Shown one piece after another: positions 1 through 10,411 of a stretch of DNA of 10,411 nucleotides. The notes below the pieces were generated by a model. The model was not told where the DNA came from, searched no databases, and saw only the letters and a list, made by a program, of their open reading frames with translations. The position numbers were made by a program, and so were the translations under genes. The stretch is taken from the IMG/VR virus record IMGVR_UViG_2531839473_000009, one strand, 5' to 3'. This DNA comes from a virus. Lineage: Duplodnaviria; Heunggongvirae; Uroviricota; Caudoviricetes. Numbering within the stretch: position 1 is the first letter of the stretch; each line of letters opens with the position of its first letter.

Positions 1-1242
1 ATGGCGAGAAAAACACCCCCATTAACCACAGTGCAGATCAAAGCAGCCAGACCAGCGCAAAAGGAGTACACCCTACAGGACGGCGGTGGGCTTTTTCTCC
101 TGGTAAAACCGTCCGGATCAAAACTCTGGCGATTTTCCTACTACCGACCATCGGACAAAAAAAGAATATTGCTGAGTTTTGGATCGCTTGAAGATGTTTC
201 CCTGGCTGATGCCAGAAAACGCCGTAGCGAGTACAGGACGTTAATCAGTGCCGGAACTGACCCGCAGGACCATGAGAAGAAAAAACGAGAGGCAGAGGCC
301 CGAAGACAAGGGAACACGTTCGAAAATGTGGCGGCGGCATGGTACCAGGTGAAAATCAGCCAGAATCTGGCCCCCAACACGATTAAAGACATCTGGCGTT
401 CGCTGGATAAATATGTATTCCCGTTCATCGGCAACACGCCAATAGATACCCTCACTGCCCGAAGGTTCGTTGAGGTGCTTACACCCATCAAGGAGCGCGG
501 CAACCTGGAAACACTCAAGCGGGTTTTACAGCGCGTTAATGAGGTAATGGATTACGCCGCCAACAGTGGGCTGATTGATGCCAATCCGGCTATGAATGTG
601 CGTAAGGCGTTCCCCTCCCCTGTAAAAAAACATATGCCAACAATCCGCCCCGAACAGTTGCCGGAGCTTATGCAGGCTTTATCCGTATCAGCAACAGAAC
701 GGCAGACCAGATTACTGATTGAATGGCAGCTACTGACTGTAACCCGTCCGGTTGAAGCATCGTCAGCACGCTGGGAAGAAATCGACATGGACGCGCAACA
801 ATGGACGATCCCCGCCGGACGCATGAAGATGCGGCGTGATCACGTTATCCCGCTTTGTAGTCAGGCTATGGCGGTACTGGAGGCCATGAAGCCAATCAGC
901 CACCACCGCGAGCACGTTTTCCCTAGCCTGAAAGACCCACGGCAGCCTATGAACAGCCAGACCGCCAACGCAGCATTGCGGCGAATGGGATTCGCTGGCG
1001 TGCTGGTGTCTCATGGATTACGCGCCATATTCAGCACAGCAGCGAACGAGGAAGGATTCGAGCCGGACGTAATCGAGGCCGCACTCGCACACGTGGACAC
1101 GAACGAGGTAAGGCGAGCATATAACCGAAGTAACTACCTGGAAAAGCGCGTGGTGCTTATGCGCTGGTGGGGGGAATTTGTAGAGGCCGCAGCAACCGGA
1201 GTGACCATAGCCAGTGGTAAAAGGGGTATCCGTGCCGTGTAA
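1..1242 (+). CDS. int: Tyrosine-type site-specific integrase, P4/CP4-57 family (413 aa, apparently complete)
   Basis: N-terminus MARKTPPLTTVQIKAARP..YTLQDGGGLFLLVKPSGSKLWRFSY matches the arm-binding domain of P4-type integrases. C-terminus HGLRAIFSTAA...ALAHVDTNEVRRAYNRSNYLEKRVVLMRWW carries the H-x-x-R box and the conserved RAY..(catalytic Tyr)..LMxWW tail. ATG at window position 1, so the attachment site and any tRNA target lie upstream, outside the window. Confidence 0.92.
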   Translation: MARKTPPLTTVQIKAARPAQKEYTLQDGGGLFLLVKPSGSKLWRFSYYRPSDKKRILLSFGSLEDVSLADARKRRSEYRTLISAGTDPQDHEKKKREAEARRQGNTFENVAAAWYQVKISQNLAPNTIKDIWRSLDKYVFPFIGNTPIDTLTARRFVEVLTPIKERGNLETLKRVLQRVNEVMDYAANSGLIDANPAMNVRKAFPSPVKKHMPTIRPEQLPELMQALSVSATERQTRLLIEWQLLTVTRPVEASSARWEEIDMDAQQWTIPAGRMKMRRDHVIPLCSQAMAVLEAMKPISHHREHVFPSLKDPRQPMNSQTANAALRRMGFAGVLVSHGLRAIFSTAANEEGFEPDVIEAALAHVDTNEVRRAYNRSNYLEKRVVLMRWWGEFVEAAATGVTIASGKRGIRAV

Positions 1243-1756: not shown

Positions 1757-1963
1757 GTGGAAACAATCAGAAAAATTCTTACCCGTCAGGAAGTAAAAAA
1801 TATTCTGCGCATCAAGGCAGACAGTTCGCTACAGGACATGATCAACGCCGGAAAATTCCCGAAAGGCTTCAAAATCGGTCTGCGCCGTGTTGGCTGGTAT
1901 GAAGATGAAGTGCTGGCCTGGCTGAAAGAGCGCGAGGAAGAAGCGCGCGGAACGGCTGCGTAA
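1757..1963 (+). CDS. alpA: AlpA-family phage transcriptional regulator / excisionase-like DNA-binding protein (68 aa, GTG start)
   Basis: Sequence ..LTRQEVKNILRIKADSSLQDMINAGKFPKGFKIGLRRVGWYEDEVLAWLKER has the AlpA/Vis/TorI signature (G-FPK ... R-VGW-E-EV-AWL). SD GAGGT sits 7 nt upstream of GTG. Position right after int is typical. Confidence 0.85.
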   Translation: METIRKILTRQEVKNILRIKADSSLQDMINAGKFPKGFKIGLRRVGWYEDEVLAWLKEREEEARGTAA

Positions 1964-3684: not shown

Positions 3685-3984
3685 ATGAAACAGAAAAATT
3701 CTGGCTTTACTGCCAGTGGCCTCGCTCGGCCTGAAATCCGCCCCGGCGATATTTTCCGGGATAACTACGGCGGCACGGTAACGATTAAAAGCGTGGCGGG
3801 ACGGTGCGTAACTTACCGCCGTGAAGGTTACGAATATGATTGCGTGATGCCTGTTTATCAGTTCCGGCGTGATTTTTCTCTGGTACAGACCGCGCCGCAT
3901 AACGTGCCCACCAGCAACGCCAGGGCACGGGCAAACATCCAGAAGCTGAAAACCATGATTAACGGATTCAGGGGTAAAAAATGA
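3685..3984 (+). CDS. Hypothetical protein (99 aa) immediately upstream of and coupled to the primase gene
   Basis: ATG at 3685 with GGAGA 9 nt upstream. Its stop overlaps the primase start (ATGA, 3981-3984). Occupies the position held by small helper-interaction genes (epsilon-like) in P4-type left operons, but no sequence similarity can be asserted. Confidence 0.6.
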   Translation: MKQKNSGFTASGLARPEIRPGDIFRDNYGGTVTIKSVAGRCVTYRREGYEYDCVMPVYQFRRDFSLVQTAPHNVPTSNARARANIQKLKTMINGFRGKK

Positions 3985-5735
3985 AACTGGCACCGAACGT
4001 AAAACAGCAGTCACGCGGCATAAAACACAAAGAAACAGAAGTCATTATTTTTGCGGGTAGTGATGCCTGGTCACACGCAAAACAATGGCAGGAACATGAC
4101 GCGCGTCTGGCCGGAGATAATGAGCCTCCTGTGTGGCTTGGGGAGCAGCAGTTATCAGAACTGGATAAGCTGCAAATTGTGCCGGAAGGCAGAAAATCCG
4201 TGCGCATATTCAGGGCCGGATATCTTGCGCCAGTAATGATAAAGGCGATTGGCCAGAAGCTGGCGGCGGCAGGCGTACAGGATGCAAATTTTTATCCTGA
4301 GGGTATGCACGGCCAAGAGGTGCAGAACTGGCGCGAATATCTGGCCCGTGAGCGACAGAATCTTTCTGATGGTCTGGTCATTGAGCTTCCGGTAAAGCAA
4401 AAGGCGCAACTTTCGCAGATGGCGGACAGTGAGCGCGCGCAGCTGCTTGCCGATCGCTTTGATGGCGTTTGCGTACATCCTGAAAGTGAAATCGTTTACG
4501 TATGGCGCGGCGGGGTATGGTGTCCGGTCAGCACAATGGAACTTAGCCGCGAAATGGTGGCGATCTATTCAGAGCACAGGGCCACTTTCAGCAAGCGCGT
4601 AATCAATAACGCCGTGGAAGCGTTAAAAGTTATTGCCGAACCAATGGGCGAGCCGTCCGGCGATTTGCTGCCGTTCGCCAATGGTGCGCTTGACCTGAAA
4701 ACGGGGGAATTTTCCCCGCACACGCCGGAGAACTGGATCACCACGCACAACGGTATTGAGTACACGCCACCAGCACCAGGGGAGAATATCCGCGACAACG
4801 CGCCAAACTTTCATAAATGGCTTGAGCACGTAGCCGGAAAAGACCCGCGCAAGATGATGCGTATATGTGCCGCGCTGTACATGATTATGGCGAACCGGTA
4901 CGACTGGCAGATGTTTATTGAGGCCACCGGAGACGGCGGGAGCGGTAAAAGTACATTCACGCACATAGCCAGCCTTCTGGCAGGGAAACAGAACACGGTG
5001 AGCGCGGAGATGACATCGCTTGATGATGCTGGTGGACGTGCGCAGGTTGTCGGGAGTCGTCTTATCGTCCTGGCTGACCAGCCGAAATATACAGGCGAAG
5101 GAACGGGCATCAAGAAAATCACGGGCGGCGACCCCGTGGAAATTAACCCGAAATATGAAAAGCGTTTTACGGCGGTAATCAGGGCGGTGGTGCTGGCTAC
5201 CAACAATAACCCGATGATATTCACCGAACGGGCCGGAGGTGTGTCACGTCGTCGCATAATTTTCCGTTTCGACAATATCGTCAGTGAGGCCGAAAAAGAC
5301 AGGGAGCTACCGGAAAAGATTGCGGCTGAAATCCCTGTCATTATCCGCCGATTGCTGGCGAACTTTACCGACCCTGAGAAGGCACGGGCTTTACTACTGG
5401 AACAGCGTGACGGTGATGAAGCACTGGCAATAAAGCAACAGACGGATCCGGTTATTGAGTTTTGCCAGTTCCTGAATTTTCTGGAGGAAGCGCGCGGCCT
5501 GATGATGGGTGGCGGTGGTGATTCAGTGAAGTACACGACCAGGAACAGCCTTTATCGCGTCTATCTGGCGTTTATGGCGTACGCAGGCAGGAGCAAACCG
5601 CTAAACGTAAATGACTTTGGCAAGGCTATGAAGCCAGCCGCGAAAGTTTACGGACATAAATATATTACGCGGAAAGTTAAGGGAGTAACGCAGACTAACG
5701 CAATAACAACAGACGAGTGCGACGCGTTTTTATAA
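3981..5735 (+). CDS. Replication initiator: primase / SF3-type helicase (P4 alpha-like / D5 family, 584 aa)
   Basis: Walker A motif ATGDGGSGKST (nt about 4922-4954) and a Walker B-like RLIVLAD a short distance downstream. Large size, position after alpA and directly upstream of an iteron cluster match the pri-rep genes of PICI/P4-like satellites. Confidence 0.88.
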   Translation: MKLAPNVKQQSRGIKHKETEVIIFAGSDAWSHAKQWQEHDARLAGDNEPPVWLGEQQLSELDKLQIVPEGRKSVRIFRAGYLAPVMIKAIGQKLAAAGVQDANFYPEGMHGQEVQNWREYLARERQNLSDGLVIELPVKQKAQLSQMADSERAQLLADRFDGVCVHPESEIVYVWRGGVWCPVSTMELSREMVAIYSEHRATFSKRVINNAVEALKVIAEPMGEPSGDLLPFANGALDLKTGEFSPHTPENWITTHNGIEYTPPAPGENIRDNAPNFHKWLEHVAGKDPRKMMRICAALYMIMANRYDWQMFIEATGDGGSGKSTFTHIASLLAGKQNTVSAEMTSLDDAGGRAQVVGSRLIVLADQPKYTGEGTGIKKITGGDPVEINPKYEKRFTAVIRAVVLATNNNPMIFTERAGGVSRRRIIFRFDNIVSEAEKDRELPEKIAAEIPVIIRRLLANFTDPEKARALLLEQRDGDEALAIKQQTDPVIEFCQFLNFLEEARGLMMGGGGDSVKYTTRNSLYRVYLAFMAYAGRSKPLNVNDFGKAMKPAAKVYGHKYITRKVKGVTQTNAITTDECDAFL

Positions 5736-5749
5736 TTTTTTGTAATTGC

Positions 5750-5975
5750 TGTCTACCCTGTCTACCTGAGTAAAGAAAAATACATTTAATTCAGTGCATT
5801 AAGTTATGTAGATAGCCTTTTTTTACTATCTACCCACTATCTACCCTCTCTACCTGATTTTACCTGAATCAGACAGGGAGGTAGACACGGGGTAGATAGT
5901 GGATAAAAGCACTCTACCCCGCTGAAAGCCGCGCCATTACTGGCATGAGGGCCACTAAGGTAGATAAGGTAGACA
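5750..5975. repeat. Iteron cluster, candidate origin of replication
   Basis: At least five direct copies of core TCTACC (5752, 5761, 5829, 5840, 5849, plus CTCTACCCC at about 5913) and four inverted copies GGTAGA (5880, 5891, 5959, 5969). Many are spaced 9-11 bp apart in a non-coding gap directly downstream of the primase/helicase gene. Confidence 0.6.
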
Positions 5976-6023: not shown

Positions 6024-6302
6024 ATGCACACTTCAGGGAAATTTAATAAATCACTCAAAAAACGCAGAGACAGAACAGAACCGAAATATCGCGCGTTAGA
6101 CATGACAGAGCACGCTTTAAAGGTGGCAATCAGAACGATAGACCGCCACGCGGGGGAAGGATACGCGAAAGCACATCCCGACCTGATAAGCGCATTCATG
6201 ACCACGACGGCGGCAAATTTTGCCACGCTGACAGAGCGGGAGATTGCCGAAGCGGAACAGGTAACAACAATCAACGTTAAAACCGGAGAGGTGGAATCAT
6301 GA
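6024..6302 (+). CDS. Hypothetical protein (92 aa) upstream of and coupled to ssb
   Basis: ATG at 6024 with G-rich SD (GAGGGGG) 11 nt upstream. Stop overlaps the ssb start (ATGA). No family recognised. Confidence 0.5.
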   Translation: MHTSGKFNKSLKKRRDRTEPKYRALDMTEHALKVAIRTIDRHAGEGYAKAHPDLISAFMTTTAANFATLTEREIAEAEQVTTINVKTGEVES

Positions 6303-6721
6303 CAGCACAGATAGCCGCTTACGGGCGGCTGGTGGACGACCCGCAGGTAAAACAGACCAGCAAGGGCACACCGATGACGCTGGCGCGTATGGCGGTCCCC
6401 CTTCCGTGCAGCCAGGCAGATGACGGAACGGCGACGATGTGGTTATCCGTCCTGGCATTTGGCAGACAGGCCGAAGCACTGGAAAGGCACCGCAAGGGTG
6501 AACTCCTGAGCGTGGCGGGTAACATGCAGATCAGCCAGTGGACTGGGCAGAACGGAGAAACGCGGCAGGGCTGGCAGGTTATCGCAGACAGTGTAATCAG
6601 TGCGCGAACGGCGCGACTGGGCGGCAAAAAAGGTCAACAGGGCCAGGCTACTGACGCGCTGAACAGGGCAAAACAACAGGCGGGGAATGATGATCCGTAC
6701 GGGGATAACATACCGTTTTAA
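6299..6721 (+). CDS. ssb: Single-stranded DNA-binding protein (SSB-like, 140 aa)
   Basis: OB-fold region aligns by eye with E. coli SSB (GRLVDDPQVK versus GNLGQDPEVR; WLSVLAFGRQAEALERHRKGELLSVAGNMQISQWTGQNGETRQGW versus [43 protein letters not shown]). Gly/Gln-rich linker and acidic C-terminal tail ending DDPYGDNIPF (canonical SSB tip is DDDIPF). Confidence 0.8.
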   Translation: MTAQIAAYGRLVDDPQVKQTSKGTPMTLARMAVPLPCSQADDGTATMWLSVLAFGRQAEALERHRKGELLSVAGNMQISQWTGQNGETRQGWQVIADSVISARTARLGGKKGQQGQATDALNRAKQQAGNDDPYGDNIPF

Positions 6722-6736
6722 GCGACGAGTGACAGA

Positions 6737-6760
6737 AGCCGGAGCAATCCGGCTTTTTTA
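6737..6760 (+). terminator. Rho-independent terminator after ssb
   Basis: Perfect 7-bp stem AGCCGGA / TCCGGCT with GCAA loop, followed by T6. Part of a roughly 65-bp element repeated at 9171-9245. Confidence 0.7.
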
Positions 6761-6939
6761 CGGGTCCTCCTGGCGGGGTGGGCCTGAACACGGGGCGGGA
6801 GGCGCGGAAAAAAGCGCATTTTTGTGATTTTATCGTCATCATCATCATGAGCGTAATTTATTGTTTTTAATTGTTTTGATGCAAAAAAGATGATGGTTGT
6901 GGTTAATTTTTGTTCGACATCTTTGCAGGCAGATAAAAA

Positions 6940-6976
6940 AGCCCGATAAGGTCAGAGGTGGCTTATCGGGCTTTTG
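6940..6976. terminator. Second, bidirectional-looking intrinsic terminator
   Basis: Perfect 11-bp stem AGCCCGATAAG / CTTATCGGGCT with 11-nt loop, A6 run upstream and T4 downstream. Confidence 0.55.
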
Positions 6977-7052
6977 CATATGAGGCTTTTTGGTGCACTG
7001 ACACACATGATCGGGATCATCATTTCATAATTTGCAACACAACTCAACATCA

Positions 7053-7080
7053 TTGCATAAAATGCAATCATGATTATAAT
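7053..7080 (+). promoter_or_regulatory. Sigma70-type promoter upstream of the capsid module
   Basis: TTGCAT (7053-7058), 16-bp spacer, consensus TATAAT (7075-7080). The -35 element lies inside the palindrome TTGCAT-AAA-ATGCAA (7053-7067); further TTGCA half-sites are upstream (about 7031-7037). Confidence 0.45.
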
Positions 7081-7113
7081 CAGAACTGGATGAACATCCA
7101 GTTCTGATTTTTT
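7081..7113 (+). promoter_or_regulatory. Perfect 12-bp-arm hairpin plus T-tract directly downstream of the promoter -10 (candidate leader terminator/attenuator or operator)
   Basis: CAGAACTGGATG-AA-CATCCAGTTCTG (7081-7106) followed by A then T6 (7108-7113), about 25 nt upstream of the first capsid-module start codon. Confidence 0.45.
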
Positions 7114-7136
7114 AAGTCAAAGAGGAATTTCTTACT

Positions 7137-7343
7137 ATGGCTGAAGAGAAAAAAGGCGGTGTTTCGGTGTACATAAGCCCCGAAATCGTGGAGGTGCTCA
7201 AGCAGCGCCACAAAAAAAACTATGAGGCTGGCGTGGCGGCTGGACTGGATCCGCTGATGACGCCGGAGCCGTCGATAGGTTCACTTGTACGCTCTTATTT
7301 ACTTGCGGCGCTTGGGATGCATAAAAATTATGGGGGTGAATAA
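7137..7343 (+). CDS. Hypothetical protein (68 aa), first gene of the capsid module
   Basis: ATG at 7137 with AGAGGA upstream. Stop TAA overlaps the capsid gene ATG (TAATG at 7341-7345). No family recognised. Confidence 0.5.
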   Translation: MAEEKKGGVSVYISPEIVEVLKQRHKKNYEAGVAAGLDPLMTPEPSIGSLVRSYLLAALGMHKNYGGE

Positions 7344-8398
7344 TGGCAGGCAAAGCAACGGCACTTAACACTAACCAGCTTTTCATGTACCTGAATCGCG
7401 GGGATATTGCGGAATTTAAATTCAGTCCGCTGTTTACCACGCTGTTTTTCCCGAACGTGGCGACATTCAACACCCAAAACATCATGCTGGACACCCTGGA
7501 CATTGAAGAGGTTACGATGTCGGCGTTTTGTTCGCCTATGGTGGGTAGTCAGGTCCAGCGCGATAAAGGGTACGAAACCAGCACGATTAAACCTGGATAC
7601 ATGAAGCCGAAGCACGAAATCGATCCAACGAAAACCATCATACGTATGGCTGGAGAAGATCCGGCACAGCTTAATGACCCAACCTATCGCCGTATGCGCC
7701 TGATTACTGGCAACATGCGCCGCCAGATAAACGCGATTAAAGCGCGCGTGGAATGGCTGGCGGTGAATGCGATAACGACCGGAAAAAACATCATTGAGGG
7801 CGAAGGCATAGAACGCTATGAAATCGACTGGAAGATACCGGAAAAAAACATCATAGAGCAGGCCAAAGGCCGTAAATGGTCCGAGCAGGACAAAGAAACC
7901 CACGATCCAATCTATGATATCGAGCTTTATGCGGATCAAGCATGTTGCCCCGCCAACGTCATGATCATGGGCGCTGAGGTATGGCGAACGTTACGCAGCT
8001 TTAAAAAATTCCGCGAACTGTACGATCTTTCCCGTGGTTCAGAGTCCTCCGCAGAGCTGGCCTGTAAAAACCTGGGCGAAGTGGTGAGCTTTAAAGGATA
8101 TCTGGGCGATATTGCCCTTATCGTCTATTCCGGCAAATACACTGACAGCGACGGCACCGAAAAATATTTCCTTGAGCCTGATTTGCTGGTCCTGGGCAAC
8201 ACCAACAATAAAGGGCTGGTGGCCTATGGTGCGATTATGGATCAGGAAGCGGTCAGAACGGGCGCAACGCAAAACATGTTTTACCCGAAAAACTGGATTG
8301 AGGACGGCGATCCGGCGATTGAGTACGTGCAGACGCACAGCGCACCGCAGCCGGTTCCGGCAGATATTCGCAAATTTGTTACCGTCAAAATTGGTTAA
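7343..8398 (+). CDS. Major capsid protein, lambda gpE family (351 aa)
   Basis: Collinear similarity to recalled lambda E along the whole length: FKFSPLFTTLFF versus FKFDPLFLRLFF; PGYMKPKHEIDP versus PGYVKPKHEVNP; DPTYRRMRLI versus DPAYRRRRII; IVYSGKY...LVLGNTNNKGLVAYGAI versus VVYSGQY...MVLGNTQARGLRTYGCI; YPKNWIEDGDPAIEY versus YPKNWVTTGDPAREF; C-terminus FVTVKIG versus FVSVQLA. SD GGGGTG 6 nt upstream. Confidence 0.9.
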   Translation: MAGKATALNTNQLFMYLNRGDIAEFKFSPLFTTLFFPNVATFNTQNIMLDTLDIEEVTMSAFCSPMVGSQVQRDKGYETSTIKPGYMKPKHEIDPTKTIIRMAGEDPAQLNDPTYRRMRLITGNMRRQINAIKARVEWLAVNAITTGKNIIEGEGIERYEIDWKIPEKNIIEQAKGRKWSEQDKETHDPIYDIELYADQACCPANVMIMGAEVWRTLRSFKKFRELYDLSRGSESSAELACKNLGEVVSFKGYLGDIALIVYSGKYTDSDGTEKYFLEPDLLVLGNTNNKGLVAYGAIMDQEAVRTGATQNMFYPKNWIEDGDPAIEYVQTHSAPQPVPADIRKFVTVKIG

Positions 8399-8409
8399 CG
8401 GGGGATTCT

Positions 8410-8745
8410 ATGGACACTCCATACATTGAGTTATTTGCAGGCAGTCAGCAGGTTGCCACGACGCTGGTACATTTTGCCGCTGATGCTGGCGTTATTCAGG
8501 AATTTACCCCGCTGATGCTGGCGGACAATGGCGAATTTAAGCCGTGGGATGGTCAGGAATCTGGCAAGGCTGTTTATCTGACGGCGTATCCCGTGGACAC
8601 GTCAACGCAGAAATCAGCACAGTGTTACAAGACGGGGATATTCAATATTGCCGCCGTTAACTGGCCTGAGAGCGTCGACACCGACGCGAAAAAATGTGCC
8701 GCCTTTGCGGGTTCTGGTGTATCTGTTCAGCCGCTGGCGCGATAA
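8410..8745 (+). CDS. Head decoration protein, lambda gpD family (111 aa)
   Basis: TPLMLADNGEFKPWDG versus lambda D TPLMLDTSSRKLVAWDG; YKTGIFNIAAVNWPESVDTDAKKCAAFAGSGVSV versus [34 protein letters not shown]. Same length class as gpD; SD GGGGGA upstream. Lies downstream of the E-like gene, the opposite order to lambda. Confidence 0.85.
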   Translation: MDTPYIELFAGSQQVATTLVHFAADAGVIQEFTPLMLADNGEFKPWDGQESGKAVYLTAYPVDTSTQKSAQCYKTGIFNIAAVNWPESVDTDAKKCAAFAGSGVSVQPLAR

Positions 8746-8758
8746 GCAGGGGGGAACG

Positions 8759-9172
8759 ATGGCAACGAATGAAAGTATCATGGCGCTACCGCTGGCGAGT
8801 AAATTTAAAGCTGAAGCGCGGGCAATGGCTGACAGATGTCTATCAACCTACGAAGCTATATATCAACTTAACAAACTGGAAGAACAGGACAAGCCGCGCG
8901 CTGATGCGATTATGTCGCTTCATGAATCTGACGACTATCAGCCGCTGTTACGTGCAATGGCAAACGTGCCTTGTATTGATGTTGATACGGCTAAAAACAT
9001 CCTGAACATGACCATAGAACAGGAACGCCAGAAGGTTGCACCAGAGCTTACCGCAGCCTTTGAAAACTTTATGGACATGCACAGCCCACAAGCCGTATCA
9101 GCTGGCATGGCATACGATGGCAGAAACCCGGGCGATGACGGCGACATTGATCGCATACTGAAAACCATCTGA
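8759..9172 (+). CDS. Hypothetical protein (137 aa), last gene of the capsid module
   Basis: ATG at 8759 with G-rich SD (AGGGGGG) 6-8 nt upstream; the longer track ORF start (8648) overlaps the decoration gene and lacks an SD. Acidic C-terminus. Followed by an intrinsic terminator. No family recognised. Confidence 0.55.
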   Translation: MATNESIMALPLASKFKAEARAMADRCLSTYEAIYQLNKLEEQDKPRADAIMSLHESDDYQPLLRAMANVPCIDVDTAKNILNMTIEQERQKVAPELTAAFENFMDMHSPQAVSAGMAYDGRNPGDDGDIDRILKTI

Positions 9173-9177
9173 GACAA

Positions 9178-9200
9178 GGCCGGAGAAATCCGGCTTTTTT
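9178..9200 (+). terminator. Rho-independent terminator after the capsid module (copy of the ssb terminator element)
   Basis: Stem GGCCGGA / TCCGGC with GAAA loop, then T6. The surrounding 9171-9245 is about 75% identical by eye to 6731-6800. Confidence 0.7.
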
Positions 9201-9333
9201 GCGGGTCCTTTCCGGCATATGGACCTGTTACGGGGCGGCGACCTCGCGCGTTTTCACTATTTATGACGTTTTTCCGAGAAGGTGCCACCACCACCACTTG
9301 ATTAATATTTAACCATGCAGTTGAGGTAACATT

Positions 9334-9768
9334 ATGATTGATAAAGCTTGTTTTGTAAGCCAGCAGGAAATAGCTGAACATTTCCAGGTAAACAGAACCA
9401 CTATTCGCGCATGGACCAAACAGGGGATGCCCTATCTTAATGCGGATCGCGGAAAGTCTGGCGGTTATCACATCGGGCATACATTGCTTTGGTCTTCAGG
9501 TAAAAGCCATTTTGAGACCATCGGATATCACGTAGAAACCAGTGCGCTGGAAAAAATTATGGTTGCCAGGCTGCTTTCATCTGAGCGTGACGAGTACTCC
9601 AGTGAAGAAACAGAACATCGATTTGATGAAGGTTTGCAGATTTACGGCTATGCACCGGAAGATGTGAGCAAGGCACGAAATAAAATGGCTGGCTTTCTGG
9701 CTGGGTGGCGTCATGCAGTAAGCGTTCGCCGTGCCAGCATGGAGCAATCAGCCGATACAGAACAGTAA
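9334..9768 (+). CDS. Nu1-like small terminase subunit / winged-HTH DNA-binding protein (144 aa)
   Basis: N-terminus VSQQEIAEHFQVNRTTIRAWTKQGMPYLNADRGKSGG resembles lambda Nu1 KKQLADIFGASIRTIQNWQEQGMPVLRGGGKGNE (the TI..W...GMP.L....GK motif of its winged helix). About 35 aa shorter than Nu1 with an unrelated C-terminal half. SD GAGGT 5 nt upstream. A MerR-like regulator cannot be excluded. Confidence 0.55.
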   Translation: MIDKACFVSQQEIAEHFQVNRTTIRAWTKQGMPYLNADRGKSGGYHIGHTLLWSSGKSHFETIGYHVETSALEKIMVARLLSSERDEYSSEETEHRFDEGLQIYGYAPEDVSKARNKMAGFLAGWRHAVSVRRASMEQSADTEQ

Positions 9769-9926
9769 AGCCGATAACTTGTTAATCACTCGCAGCAATG
9801 CATGTGATTTGTGCACACTTTCGGTTAACTGGTTCGATGTCCGGTTTTAGTGTCTGTTTTTTGCGCATGTCCGGTTCATGGAAAGCATGTTTTTATATTT
9901 TTCATATGGTTAACTTACAGAGAAAC

Positions 9927-10411
9927 TGGATTTGCCCCTATATTTCCAGACATCTGTTATCACTTAACCCATTACAAGCCCGCTGCCGCAGATATTCCCG
10001 TGGCGAGCGATAACCCAGCGCACTATGCGGATGCCATTCGTTATAATGCTCGAACGCCTCTGCAAGGTTCTTTGCTGCCGTTAACCCGTCTGGTTTGGGC
10101 ATGATACTGATGTAGTCACGCTTTATCGTTTTCACGAAGCTCTCTGCTATTCCGTTACTCTCCGGACTCCGCACCGCCGTGTTCTTCGGTTCAAGTCCCA
10201 ACATCCGGGCGAACTGGCGTGTTTCATTAGCCCGGTAGCATGAACCATTATCCGTCAGCCACTCCACTGGAGACGACGGAAGATCGTTGCCGAAGCGGCG
10301 TTCCACCGCTCCCAGCATGACGTCCTGTACTGTTTCACTGTTGAAGCCGCCAGTAGTCACCGCCCAGTGCAGTGCCTCACGATCACAGCAGTCCAGCGCG
10401 AACGTGACACG
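9927..10411 (-). mobile_element. IS2 (IS3 family), right end and 3' part, truncated by the window edge
   Basis: Terminal sequence TGGATTTGCCCCTATATTTCCAGACATCTGTTATCACTTAACC matches the remembered IS2 end adjacent to the orfB stop, including the conserved TTTCCAGACA...TATCACTTAA inverted-repeat core. Element boundary placed at about 9927. Target-site duplication cannot be checked because the other end is outside the window. Confidence 0.8.
9938..10411 (-). CDS. insD: IS2 transposase OrfB (InsD), C-terminal part; 5' end outside the window
   Basis: The reverse frame is open to the window edge (..[40 protein letters not shown]...[19 protein letters not shown]...[24 protein letters not shown]). 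It matches the IS2 InsD C-terminus from memory and has the DDE-domain tail typical of IS3-family OrfB. Confidence 0.9.

Follow-up and report, generated by a model that had tools for sequence, protein, structure and literature searches.

Why should homologues of phage capsid genes stand between two near-identical copies of what looks like a transcription terminator? The question is posed by a 10,411-nucleotide stretch of viral DNA (IMG/VR record IMGVR_UViG_2531839473_000009; the whole stretch, as analysed here, is called the window), in which four tightly packed genes, including homologues of the major capsid protein gpE and the head decoration protein gpD of phage lambda, are bracketed by such a repeat. 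A reading made from the letters alone (the sequence-only reading) had proposed either that this cassette is a moron-like unit acquired by recombination or that the repeated element has a function beyond termination. The second proposal is borne out, as the element carries cosQ together with cosN or a cosN-like site, which are phage packaging signals. We put at roughly 85% the probability that the window belongs to the EcCICFT073 family of Gram-negative phage-inducible chromosomal islands (PICIs) and has a module of capsid homologues, each repeat being a terminator hairpin fused to a lambdoid packaging signal. The apparent duplicated terminators are thus packaging signals of a well-studied class of phage satellites, and this identity explains both their placement and the TerS-like gene that comes after them.

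Among Gram-negative PICIs of the cos type, the model is EcCICFT073 of E. coli CFT073 (Fillol-Salom et al. 2018 ISME J, PMC6092414; 2019 Mol Cell, PMC6739421), for which helper-driven induction, replication, high-frequency transfer and interference are known (PMC6092414, PMC6739421). Membership of this published family of E. coli phage-parasitic islands, and the identity of cos1 and rppA within it, are mostly known biology; the possibly undescribed additions are modest, namely a heterologous third cos, a homologue of the Nu3 scaffold and a recurrent cos–capsid–cos layout.

The repeated element and the identity of the island

The elements at the borders of the cassette and the gene that follows it are:

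6738–6759, plus strand: upstream GC hairpin GCCGGAGCAATCCGGC with T6 (−15.4 kcal/mol, z −3.7), terminator-like, at the end of the replication/ssb module
6755–6924, plus strand: upstream cos-like block, with cosQ, spacer, cosN-like motif and about 120 nt of cosB-side sequence
9179–9200, plus strand: second GC hairpin GCCGGAGAAATCCGGC with T6 (−14.1 kcal/mol), directly 3′ of the orf137 stop, found in 77 of 78 related loci
9203–9333, plus strand: PICI cos, the equivalent of EcCICFT073 cos1, with cosQ, cosN and then a PICI-specific cosB up to rpp
9334–9768, plus strand: rppA-type gene (redirecting phage packaging protein), 144 amino acids, with a winged-HTH domain like that of TerS

The near-identical flanks described in the sequence-only reading (6731–6800 and 9171–9245) are real: two direct copies of hairpin–T6–CGGGTCCT…ACGGGGCGG bracket the four genes, and pairwise alignment gives 78% identity over 69 columns, beyond the generic hairpin. 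At the core of the likeness is a 31-nt direct repeat returned by a repeat finder (6738–6768 versus 9179–9209; 94% identity), within which lie the hairpin–T6 cores GCCGGAGCAATCCGGC-T6 (6738–6759) and GCCGGAGAAATCCGGC-T6 (9179–9200). By its sequence, CGGGTCCT corresponds to lambda cosQ and ACGGGGCGG to the left half of cosN, at lambda spacing. The composite GGGTCCT-N18–28-ACGGGGCGG occurs exactly twice in the window (6762–6798 and 9203–9238, both on the plus strand), and 200 shuffles that preserved dinucleotides never produced it; the longest run repeated exactly, of 15 nt, falls by itself within the shuffle range and is not beyond chance. A chance likeness of two ordinary terminators was rejected on the strength of the composite's absence from the shuffles and because both copies match phage cos regions. 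Both GC hairpins fold stably, at −15.4 kcal/mol upstream and −14.1 kcal/mol downstream, where lambda has a weak AT-rich hairpin before cosQ, and in the islands examined and in 49 kb of CFT073 sequence the hairpin was found nowhere but at the cassette flanks. From a GC hairpin with a T-run that closes an operon and is fused to cos, we infer an intrinsic terminator.

In the downstream copy, cosQ (GGGTCCT, 9203–9209) is followed by a spacer of 23 nt and by cosN, ACG|GGGCGGCGACCT at 9230–9244, whose 12-nt cohesive-end sequence GGGCGGCGACCT (9233–9244) is identical to that of lambda. The copy reads TTTTTTGCGGGTCCTTTCCGGCATATGGACCTGTTACG|GGGCGGCGACCTCGCGCGTTTTCACTATTTATGA; the right end of lambda is …CACTTTACGGGTCCTTTCCGGTGATCCGACAGGTTACG (…ACGGGTCCTTTCCGGTGATCCGACAGGTTACG) and its left end GGGCGGCGACCTCGCGGGTTTTCGCTATTTATGA… (GGGCGGCGACCTCGCGGG…). 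Lambda cos and the downstream site have in common cosQ, the 23-bp spacer, cosN GGGCGGCGACCT and then an I2-like TTTTC(A/G)CTATTTATGA, and the downstream site, as lambda cos does, adjoins a gene of the TerS fold, lying about 100 nt upstream of it. Alignment with lambda and PhiR5_1 collapses about 40 nt past cosN. Whereas lambda has R3-I1-R2-R1, the downstream site lacks them and has an island-specific cosB that is read by Rpp–TerS (PMC6739421, PMC9026076).

The closest counterpart is in EcCICFT073 itself. Positions 9173–9333 are 94.4% identical to the CFT073 sequence 5′ of rppA, the cos1 region, and the site matches the 'EcCICFT073 cos1' printed in Fig. S1A of PMC6739421. The same figure disposes of one candidate explanation, that the two copies in the window are the published cos1 and cos2, as it places cos2 inverted and downstream of rpp. 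The cos1 site is required experimentally for lambda- and phi80-mediated transfer of EcCICFT073, and its cosB is recognized by RppA–TerS (PMC6092414, PMC6739421), a mechanism treated further in PMC9026076, where Murialdo and Feiss place a likely Rpp site (R3-PICI) at bp 48–65 from the nick; this corresponds to about 9280–9297 in the window. The gene beyond, described in the sequence-only reading as Nu1-like, was correctly placed by fold, but the gene is RppA: the 144-residue product is 95% identical to CFT073 c1503, which is RppA, and matches RppC (PDB 6hlk) at E = 6.5e-31, compared with E of about 0.1 for the N-terminal domains of true TerS proteins. The DNA-reading residues R21-T22 are present in the window protein (NRTTIRAW).

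By homology with the published cos1 experiments, the downstream copy would be the working cos of the island. RppA would bind the Nu1-type TerS of a helper, the heterodimer would recognize the island-specific cosB between cosN and rppA, and the helper TerL would then nick cosN. Concatemers of island DNA would be packaged rightwards into the capsids of the helper, whose own packaging would be blocked.

The rest of the window, as read from the open-reading-frame list and domain scans, has the co-oriented gene order of such an island, namely int, alpA, primase, ssb, capsid-homologue module, cos and rppA:

1–1242, plus strand: P4-type tyrosine integrase (Phage_integrase, Arm-DNA-bind_3 and Phage_int_M domains)
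1757–1963, plus strand: AlpA-family regulator (Phage_AlpA domain)
3981–5735, plus strand: D5-type primase (D5_N, DUF5906 and Pox_D5 domains)
6299–6721, plus strand: single-stranded DNA-binding protein (SSB), from the domain scan

No portal, terL, tail or lysis gene was found by these scans in the 10.4-kb window. The order matches that of EcCICFT073 (megablast against complete E. coli genomes, with the RefSeq annotation of CFT073), and synteny with CFT073 c1498–c1503 holds. Because of the integrase, AlpA, primase and SSB domains, the RppA identity and this synteny, we assign the window to the EcCICFT073 family. EcCICFT073 likewise has int-alpA-pri-ssb, the c1498–c1501 equivalents, cos1, rppA, an inverted cos2 and a 93-residue open reading frame, and the two islands are 92–97% identical in the cassette proteins, 94% in the cos1 region and 95% in RppA. 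Unlike EcCICFT073, the window island lies at a different locus (on the tRNA-Pro/yejO side), lacks perC, has a heterologous cos-like block of about 170 bp after ssb and has a cos2 disrupted by IS2.

The capsid-homologue cassette

The four genes between the repeats are:

7137–7343, plus strand: orf68, at the position of EcCICFT073 c1498 (phrog_3255, E = 8.5e-46)
7343–8398, plus strand: homologue of the lambda gpE-family major capsid protein (MCP), equivalent to c1499 (Pfam Phage_cap_E, 1.6e-50), with a TAATG overlap with orf68
8410–8745, plus strand: homologue of the lambda gpD-family head decoration protein, equivalent to c1500 (Pfam HDPD, 2.1e-18), after an 11-nt gap
8759–9172, plus strand: orf137, 137 amino acids (phrog_1999, 2.3e-62), after a 13-nt gap

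The E-like gene thus precedes the D-like gene, and the tight packing (TAATG overlap, 11-nt and 13-nt gaps) and all coordinates are as the sequence-only reading had them. Its statement that the cassette has no scaffold does not hold. The product of orf137 matches phrog_53 (head maturation protease) over its C-terminal 75 positions (2.6e-8), residues 416–493 of the 501-residue S49 protease of the CFT073 helper (34% identity, E = 7e-9) and, colinearly but weakly, residues 125–199 of lambda Nu3; on these alignments it is a homologue of the C-terminal scaffold domain common to gpC and Nu3, without the protease domain. A single-sequence AlphaFold model of orf137 was of low confidence (pLDDT 45.7) and was not used, and we found no support for the label 'phage head-tail connector protein' that the gene bears in RefSeq (strain GB089). 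NCBIfam has no family for any of the cassette proteins. With this assignment, the genes of the island run E, D, Nu3-like, opposite to the arrangement in phages, C/Nu3, D, E.

Both structural proteins are distant from their phage counterparts. The island MCP is 45% identical to gpE of the CFT073 helper prophage and the decoration protein 45% identical to the D protein of that prophage. Among 50,697 phage records no MCP exceeds 47% identity to that of the island, and we therefore place the protein in a satellite-specific clade. The product of orf68 was modelled with AF2 (pLDDT 74.5; helices at 15–34 and 47–63) as an extended N terminus followed by two helices, a beta-alpha-alpha topology with which a ribbon-helix-helix fold, itself a guess, would be compatible; against the PDB the model gave no significant fold match, the best being the TraM DNA-binding domain (E = 1.8). 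The gene itself is mosaic, being 99–100% identical to the s300033 and O157 versions and 68% identical to those of CFT073 and Nissle while the adjacent capsid genes stay at 90–97%, and this jump in identity against stable capsid genes points to recombination inside the left end of the cassette.

The distribution of the cassette was surveyed across species in IMG/VR and E. coli genomes, with 87 loci in the locus survey (80 IMG/VR contigs, six E. coli islands and the window); searches of genome contigs with Rpp and with the capsid alignment gave no confirmed loci. The cassette is present in all 87 loci, with the CFT073, O157, Nissle and ETEC1730 islands likewise carrying it, and at about 90% DNA identity or more it occurs in 598 of 5,426 complete E. 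coli genomes (11%). The E-D order is invariant (87/87), including in the divergent ETEC1730 island, the MCP of which is 64% identical. Pairwise dN/dS against other islands is 0.07–0.13 for the MCP, 0.06–0.13 for D, 0.15–0.19 for orf137 and 0.15–0.39 for orf68, from which we conclude that all four genes are maintained by purifying selection. The sequence evidence thus presents the cassette as a conserved, satellite-specific core morphogenesis module and not as a moron. In a published set of 29 reference Gram-negative PICIs, 21 carry a capsid gene (PMC10111431), and SaPIbov5, with its Ccm protein, and the capsid-forming PICIs (cf-PICIs) resemble the window island in encoding a satellite homologue of the helper's HK97-fold major capsid protein. 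The cf-PICIs, however, have a full head set (portal, protease, connectors, TerS and TerL), whereas the window island has only the MCP, the decoration protein, the scaffold-like protein and Rpp. EcCICFT073 is packaged in full-size capsids, small capsids not having been reported (PMC6092414, PMC6893505).

Signals around the cassette and the right-hand end

Four further elements lie between the upstream repeat and the cassette or beyond rppA:

6937–6975, plus strand: second strong hairpin with a T-run (AAAAAAGCCCGATAAGG…CTTATCGGGCTTTT; −25.6 kcal/mol, z −4.0)
7053–7109, plus strand: promoter-like TTGCAT-16-TATAAT (7053–7080) with the palindrome TTGCATAAAATGCAA, and hairpin 7078–7109, followed by T6
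9798–9925, minus strand: remnant of the cosB side of an inverted, EcCICFT073-family cos2, reverse-complementary to the cos2 flank as published
9926–10411, minus strand: end of an IS2-like (IS3 family) element, with a minus-strand open reading frame at 9938–10360

The two strong hairpins with T-runs between the upstream repeat and the cassette (6937–6975 and 7078–7109) had no place in the sequence-only reading. The former, conserved in CFT073 and others, is the left edge of the block kept in all islands, and one megablast breakpoint (about 6935) falls at it. The latter (−21.9 kcal/mol, z −6.9) stands just before the ribosome-binding site of the cassette, and its 5′ arm is overlapped by the −10 hexamer; TATAAT and the palindrome TTGCATAAAATGCAA are retained throughout 55 sequence variants, and a base pair of the stem covaries among islands as G-C, T-A or C-G. 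The arrangement may be a promoter embedded in an insulating terminator: transcripts begun at the promoter at 7053–7080 would lack the full terminator stem, and read-through from upstream would be stopped.

On the other side of the cassette, an inverted cos2 is present in most loci and is intact at the same place in the s300033, Nissle, CFT073 and O157 islands. In the window its cosB side is interrupted at 9926 by an IS2-like element end, TGGATTTGCCCC, a terminal repeat that we take to be that of IS2; an IS2-family transposase is annotated beneath the match in H85. The insertion cuts this flank off from the cosN and cosQ of cos2; these are not within the window, and in intact relatives the inverted site follows about 50–90 nt further on. 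The window also stops short of the right end of the island and of attR, both of which lie past the IS2 at 9926; in s300033 and Nissle, where the islands are near-identical, the distance between the integrase gene and the neighbouring chromosomal genes is about 11–12 kb.

Two observations concern the left half of the window. The primase gene is directly followed (5749–5917) by an inverted repeat of 38 nt and by iteron-like direct repeats built of CTRTCTACCC units, probably the replication origin of the island by analogy with Gram-negative PICIs. Just 5′ of alpA (1651–1692) is a near-perfect palindrome of 21 + 21 nt (AAAAACAGTGGGTACCGTTTT / AAAACGGTGGGTACTGTTTTT), a candidate operator for island regulation.

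A heterologous cos-like block upstream of the cassette

The upstream copy has an exact cosQ (GGGTCCT, 6762–6768), a spacer of 24 nt and ACG|GGGCGGGAGGCG at 6790–6804, but the cosN-like GGGCGGGAGGCG agrees with lambda cosN at only 7 of 12 positions. It is neither of the two published cos sites (cos1, cos2). In a BLAST search of the same phage records, the block is 91% identical over 172 columns to the intergenic region between Rz and terS of the Stx2d phage Stx2_112808, and it also matches the Rz–terS intergenic regions of VT1-Sakai and mEp460-type phages. In lambdoid genomes, cos is located between Rz and terS. The match to the cos regions of the Stx, Gifsy-2 and mEp460 types begins at the T-run that precedes cosQ and extends some 130 nt beyond the cosN-like motif. 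In Stx-type phages the next gene is a DUF1441 terS, whereas the window continues with a terminator hairpin and the lambda-type capsid cassette; the block is without the last 70 nt or so that precede terS in those phages. The Stx/VT1-Sakai (Sp15), Gifsy-2/cdtI and mEp460-type phages have a DUF1441 TerS with a GpA-family TerL, and by BLAST the DUF1441 TerS of the Stx/mEp460-type phages has no similarity to Nu1 or Rpp. EcCICFT073 has perC and then the same hairpin-T6-GCG, which leads straight into the second hairpin, marking the block as a clean indel of about 170 bp. The block derives from lambdoid phages of the Stx/VT1-Sakai/Gifsy-2/mEp460 group and is a dispensable indel polymorphism of the family. 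We found no mention of a third cos site in three published analyses of PICI cos sites, which is no proof that it is undescribed; the upstream copy is apparently an undescribed extra cos. Two INPHARED records, ON470578 (vB_EcoS-606R10, 16 kb) and ON470596 (vB_EcoM-569R10, 20 kb), show matches to the upstream cos block or to a capsid gene of the island type and may be packaged satellites deposited as phages.

The two ends of the bracket differ in their distribution. The downstream hairpin with a lambda-like cos is present in 77 of the 78 informative loci, 70 of them with the exact 12-mer of lambda. Upstream, 75 of 83 loci have at least one copy of the same GC hairpin, with or without cos, and 22 of the 83 (about 27%) have the cos-like part, always with a non-lambda 12-mer (GGGCGGGAGGCG in 20). 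The hairpin bracket is a family trait and the long, cos-bearing upstream repeat a minority polymorphism. In a PICI context, the upstream block occurs in 169 of the 5,426 E. coli genomes, and its copies are nearly identical (148 records at 99% or more). Whether the gene after the cassette is rpp or a genuine Nu1-family terS has no bearing on the presence of the block. Around the cassette, megablast places mosaic breakpoints at about 6935 and about 9272–9276; the left neighbours vary (ssb, perC, or perC with two open reading frames), as do those on the right (rpp or a Nu1-type terS). In many islands that share the cassette, terS stands where rpp would be, and the swap point is just after cosN, at about 9272–9276 in window coordinates. 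In Nissle 1917 (L006, 13610–14152) and O157:H7 (L010, 10444–10986), the gene replacing rpp is a genuine Nu1-family terS of 180 amino acids, the product of which is 35% identical to lambda Nu1 and 41% identical to the Nu1 of PhiR5_1.

The same layout is met in a sister group. The island of E. coli F11 (L096), found through weak matches to the hairpin–cos, has int, alpA, primase, ssb, hairpin-T6-cosQ-cosN (7014–7086) and then a small open reading frame that overlaps the start of a gene for a ClpP-protease/major-capsid fusion (7627–9540), followed by a different GC hairpin with T6-cosQ-cosN (9548–9620), an mEp460-like cosB and a DUF1441 TerS-like gene. Its two cos copies are 84% identical over 134 columns; in the stretch 7014–10282, the likeness of the upstream copy to the downstream copy and to phage cosB ends about 130 nt in, which would fit a termination-only site. 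About 20 of 27 close F11-type relatives in IMG/VR carry both copies. These F11-type PICIs, at the cspD/clpS locus, share the backbone and layout of the window, with a left hairpin–cos that is 80% identical, but differ in that the capsid is of the Phage_capsid_4 and Clp protease families, both cos copies are of the Gifsy-2/mEp460 type, another hairpin precedes the downstream cos, and a D-like or Nu3-like gene is absent. Similarity between orf68 and the small open reading frame before the F11 capsid gene is not significant (E = 0.056). Among satellite-sized ClpP-MCP contigs in IMG/VR (L097–L175), cosQ-cosN almost always lies 35–63 nt past the capsid stop, and the 12-mers vary widely (GGGCGGGAGCGG, GGGCGGCGCGCT, GGGCGGGCGGCG, AGGCGGCGGGCA and others), which points to cos specificities that have diversified from satellite to satellite. 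The layout hairpin-cos, capsid module, hairpin-cos, terS-like gene recurs in two PICI subfamilies with unrelated capsid and TerS families, the window island combining a cos of the Stx/F11 type on the left with a lambda-type module on the right.

With these distributions in hand, the proposal that the cassette is a moron-like acquired add-on, bounded by repeats that serve as recombination sites or plain terminators, becomes very improbable. Its modular aspect stands: the flanks are mosaic on the left (ssb, perC, or perC with two open reading frames) and on the right (rpp or Nu1-type terS), the cos block is a 170-bp indel, a ClpP-MCP module occupies the same slot in the sister family, and, with the promoter-like site and the hairpins on either side, the cassette could be transcribed as a unit of its own. 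Its optional aspect does not, because the cassette is in every related island examined, in the same order and under purifying selection, and was never found to be optional, and its genes are virion morphogenesis homologues tied to the life cycle rather than host-fitness cargo. Nor do the junctions fall in the repeats as proposed, as the edges of the conserved block (about 6935 and about 9272–9276) lie outside the upstream repeat, the long form of which is missing from the EcCICFT073 and O157 islands, where the cassette is present without an upstream cosQ/cosN and with the hairpin kept; and the repeats themselves carry cosQ and cosN.

For the upstream copy, we infer either a remnant of an ancestral cos–capsid–cos arrangement or module swap, or a second 'key' for packaging independent of Rpp. 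That it is a non-functional relic of an ancestral double cos, or of a module swap at shared cos homology, now being deleted, has in our estimate close to an even chance. Most islands keep hairpin-T6-(G/A)CG and then jump to the second hairpin, as deletion of a 170-bp block predicts, and two different capsid modules occupy the same slot in the sister families; EcCICFT073 can do without its extra cos2, and lambda-mediated transfer goes up when that site is deleted (PMC6092414). Against decay stand the intact cosQ, spacing and left half of cosN in all 22 carriers (with variant 12-mers in 2) and the F11-type subfamily, where the bracket is the majority state (about 75%); the near-identity of the block copies (148 records at 99% or more) means that decay cannot be judged from them. 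The other possibility, which extends the PICI explanation and to which we give about one chance in three, is that DUF1441-TerS helpers (Stx/Sp15, Gifsy-2 and mEp460-like) bind its cosB and cut at 6793, giving the island two helper ranges, one dependent on Rpp at cos1 and one independent of Rpp upstream. The exact cosQ and the cosQ–cosN spacing of 24 nt (23 nt in lambda) favour a working site, as does the retention, for about 130 nt past the putative nick, of every segment conserved between the diverged mEp460 and Stx phages, in which the cosN-like motif lies about 157–198 nt from the terS start (190 nt in lambda). Being unrelated to Nu1, the DUF1441 TerS could not be redirected by Rpp, and sister islands that encode a DUF1441 protein have the same cos type at the same position, with the bracket recurring. 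Yet 73% of related islands lack the block, including the experimentally mobile EcCICFT073; the PICI 12-mer is at least 1 nt off each phage 12-mer; and the block has no clear R-type repeats, only weak, short ones on which we base no claim. Slightly less likely is the general proposition that enterobacterial PICIs deliberately bracket their capsid module with two co-oriented cos sites, which in islands such as that of the window would belong to different terminase systems and give a dual helper range or a length-tuning second point of termination; Nu1-type terminases would act via Rpp at cos1 and DUF1441-type terminases directly at the upstream site.

Several points weigh against our account of the window as a whole. 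A simple consensus terminator scan of the window called neither GC hairpin, and folding energies were used instead. Positions 6793–6804 are a putative cosN by analogy; a cut site for the Stx/mEp460 type was sought from record termini, but the mEp460 record begins at the terS ATG and is uninformative. At the level of megablast, most genomes that carry the upstream block have no resident prophage of that cos type, EcCICFT073 transfers well without the block, and its extra cos2 is not only dispensable but even slightly inhibitory for lambda and phi80 transfer (PMC6092414). The roles given to cos1 and Rpp in the window island are carried over from the published EcCICFT073 work, and deletion of c1499 or c1500 in EcCICFT073 left lambda interference and transfer unaffected (PMC6092414).

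Since those deletions gave no phenotype, it has been a standing puzzle what the capsid genes contribute in PICIs of the EcCICFT073 type. The scaffold-domain homologue, the strong purifying selection and the satellite-specific clade suggest that any contribution may show with natural, non-lambda helpers, and the action of the Nu3-like, E-like and D-like proteins might be confined to certain helpers. If the upstream cos is active, one island could be mobilized by two unrelated terminase systems, including those of Stx-phage-type helpers, which would give such islands and their cargo broader routes of spread among pathogenic E. coli.

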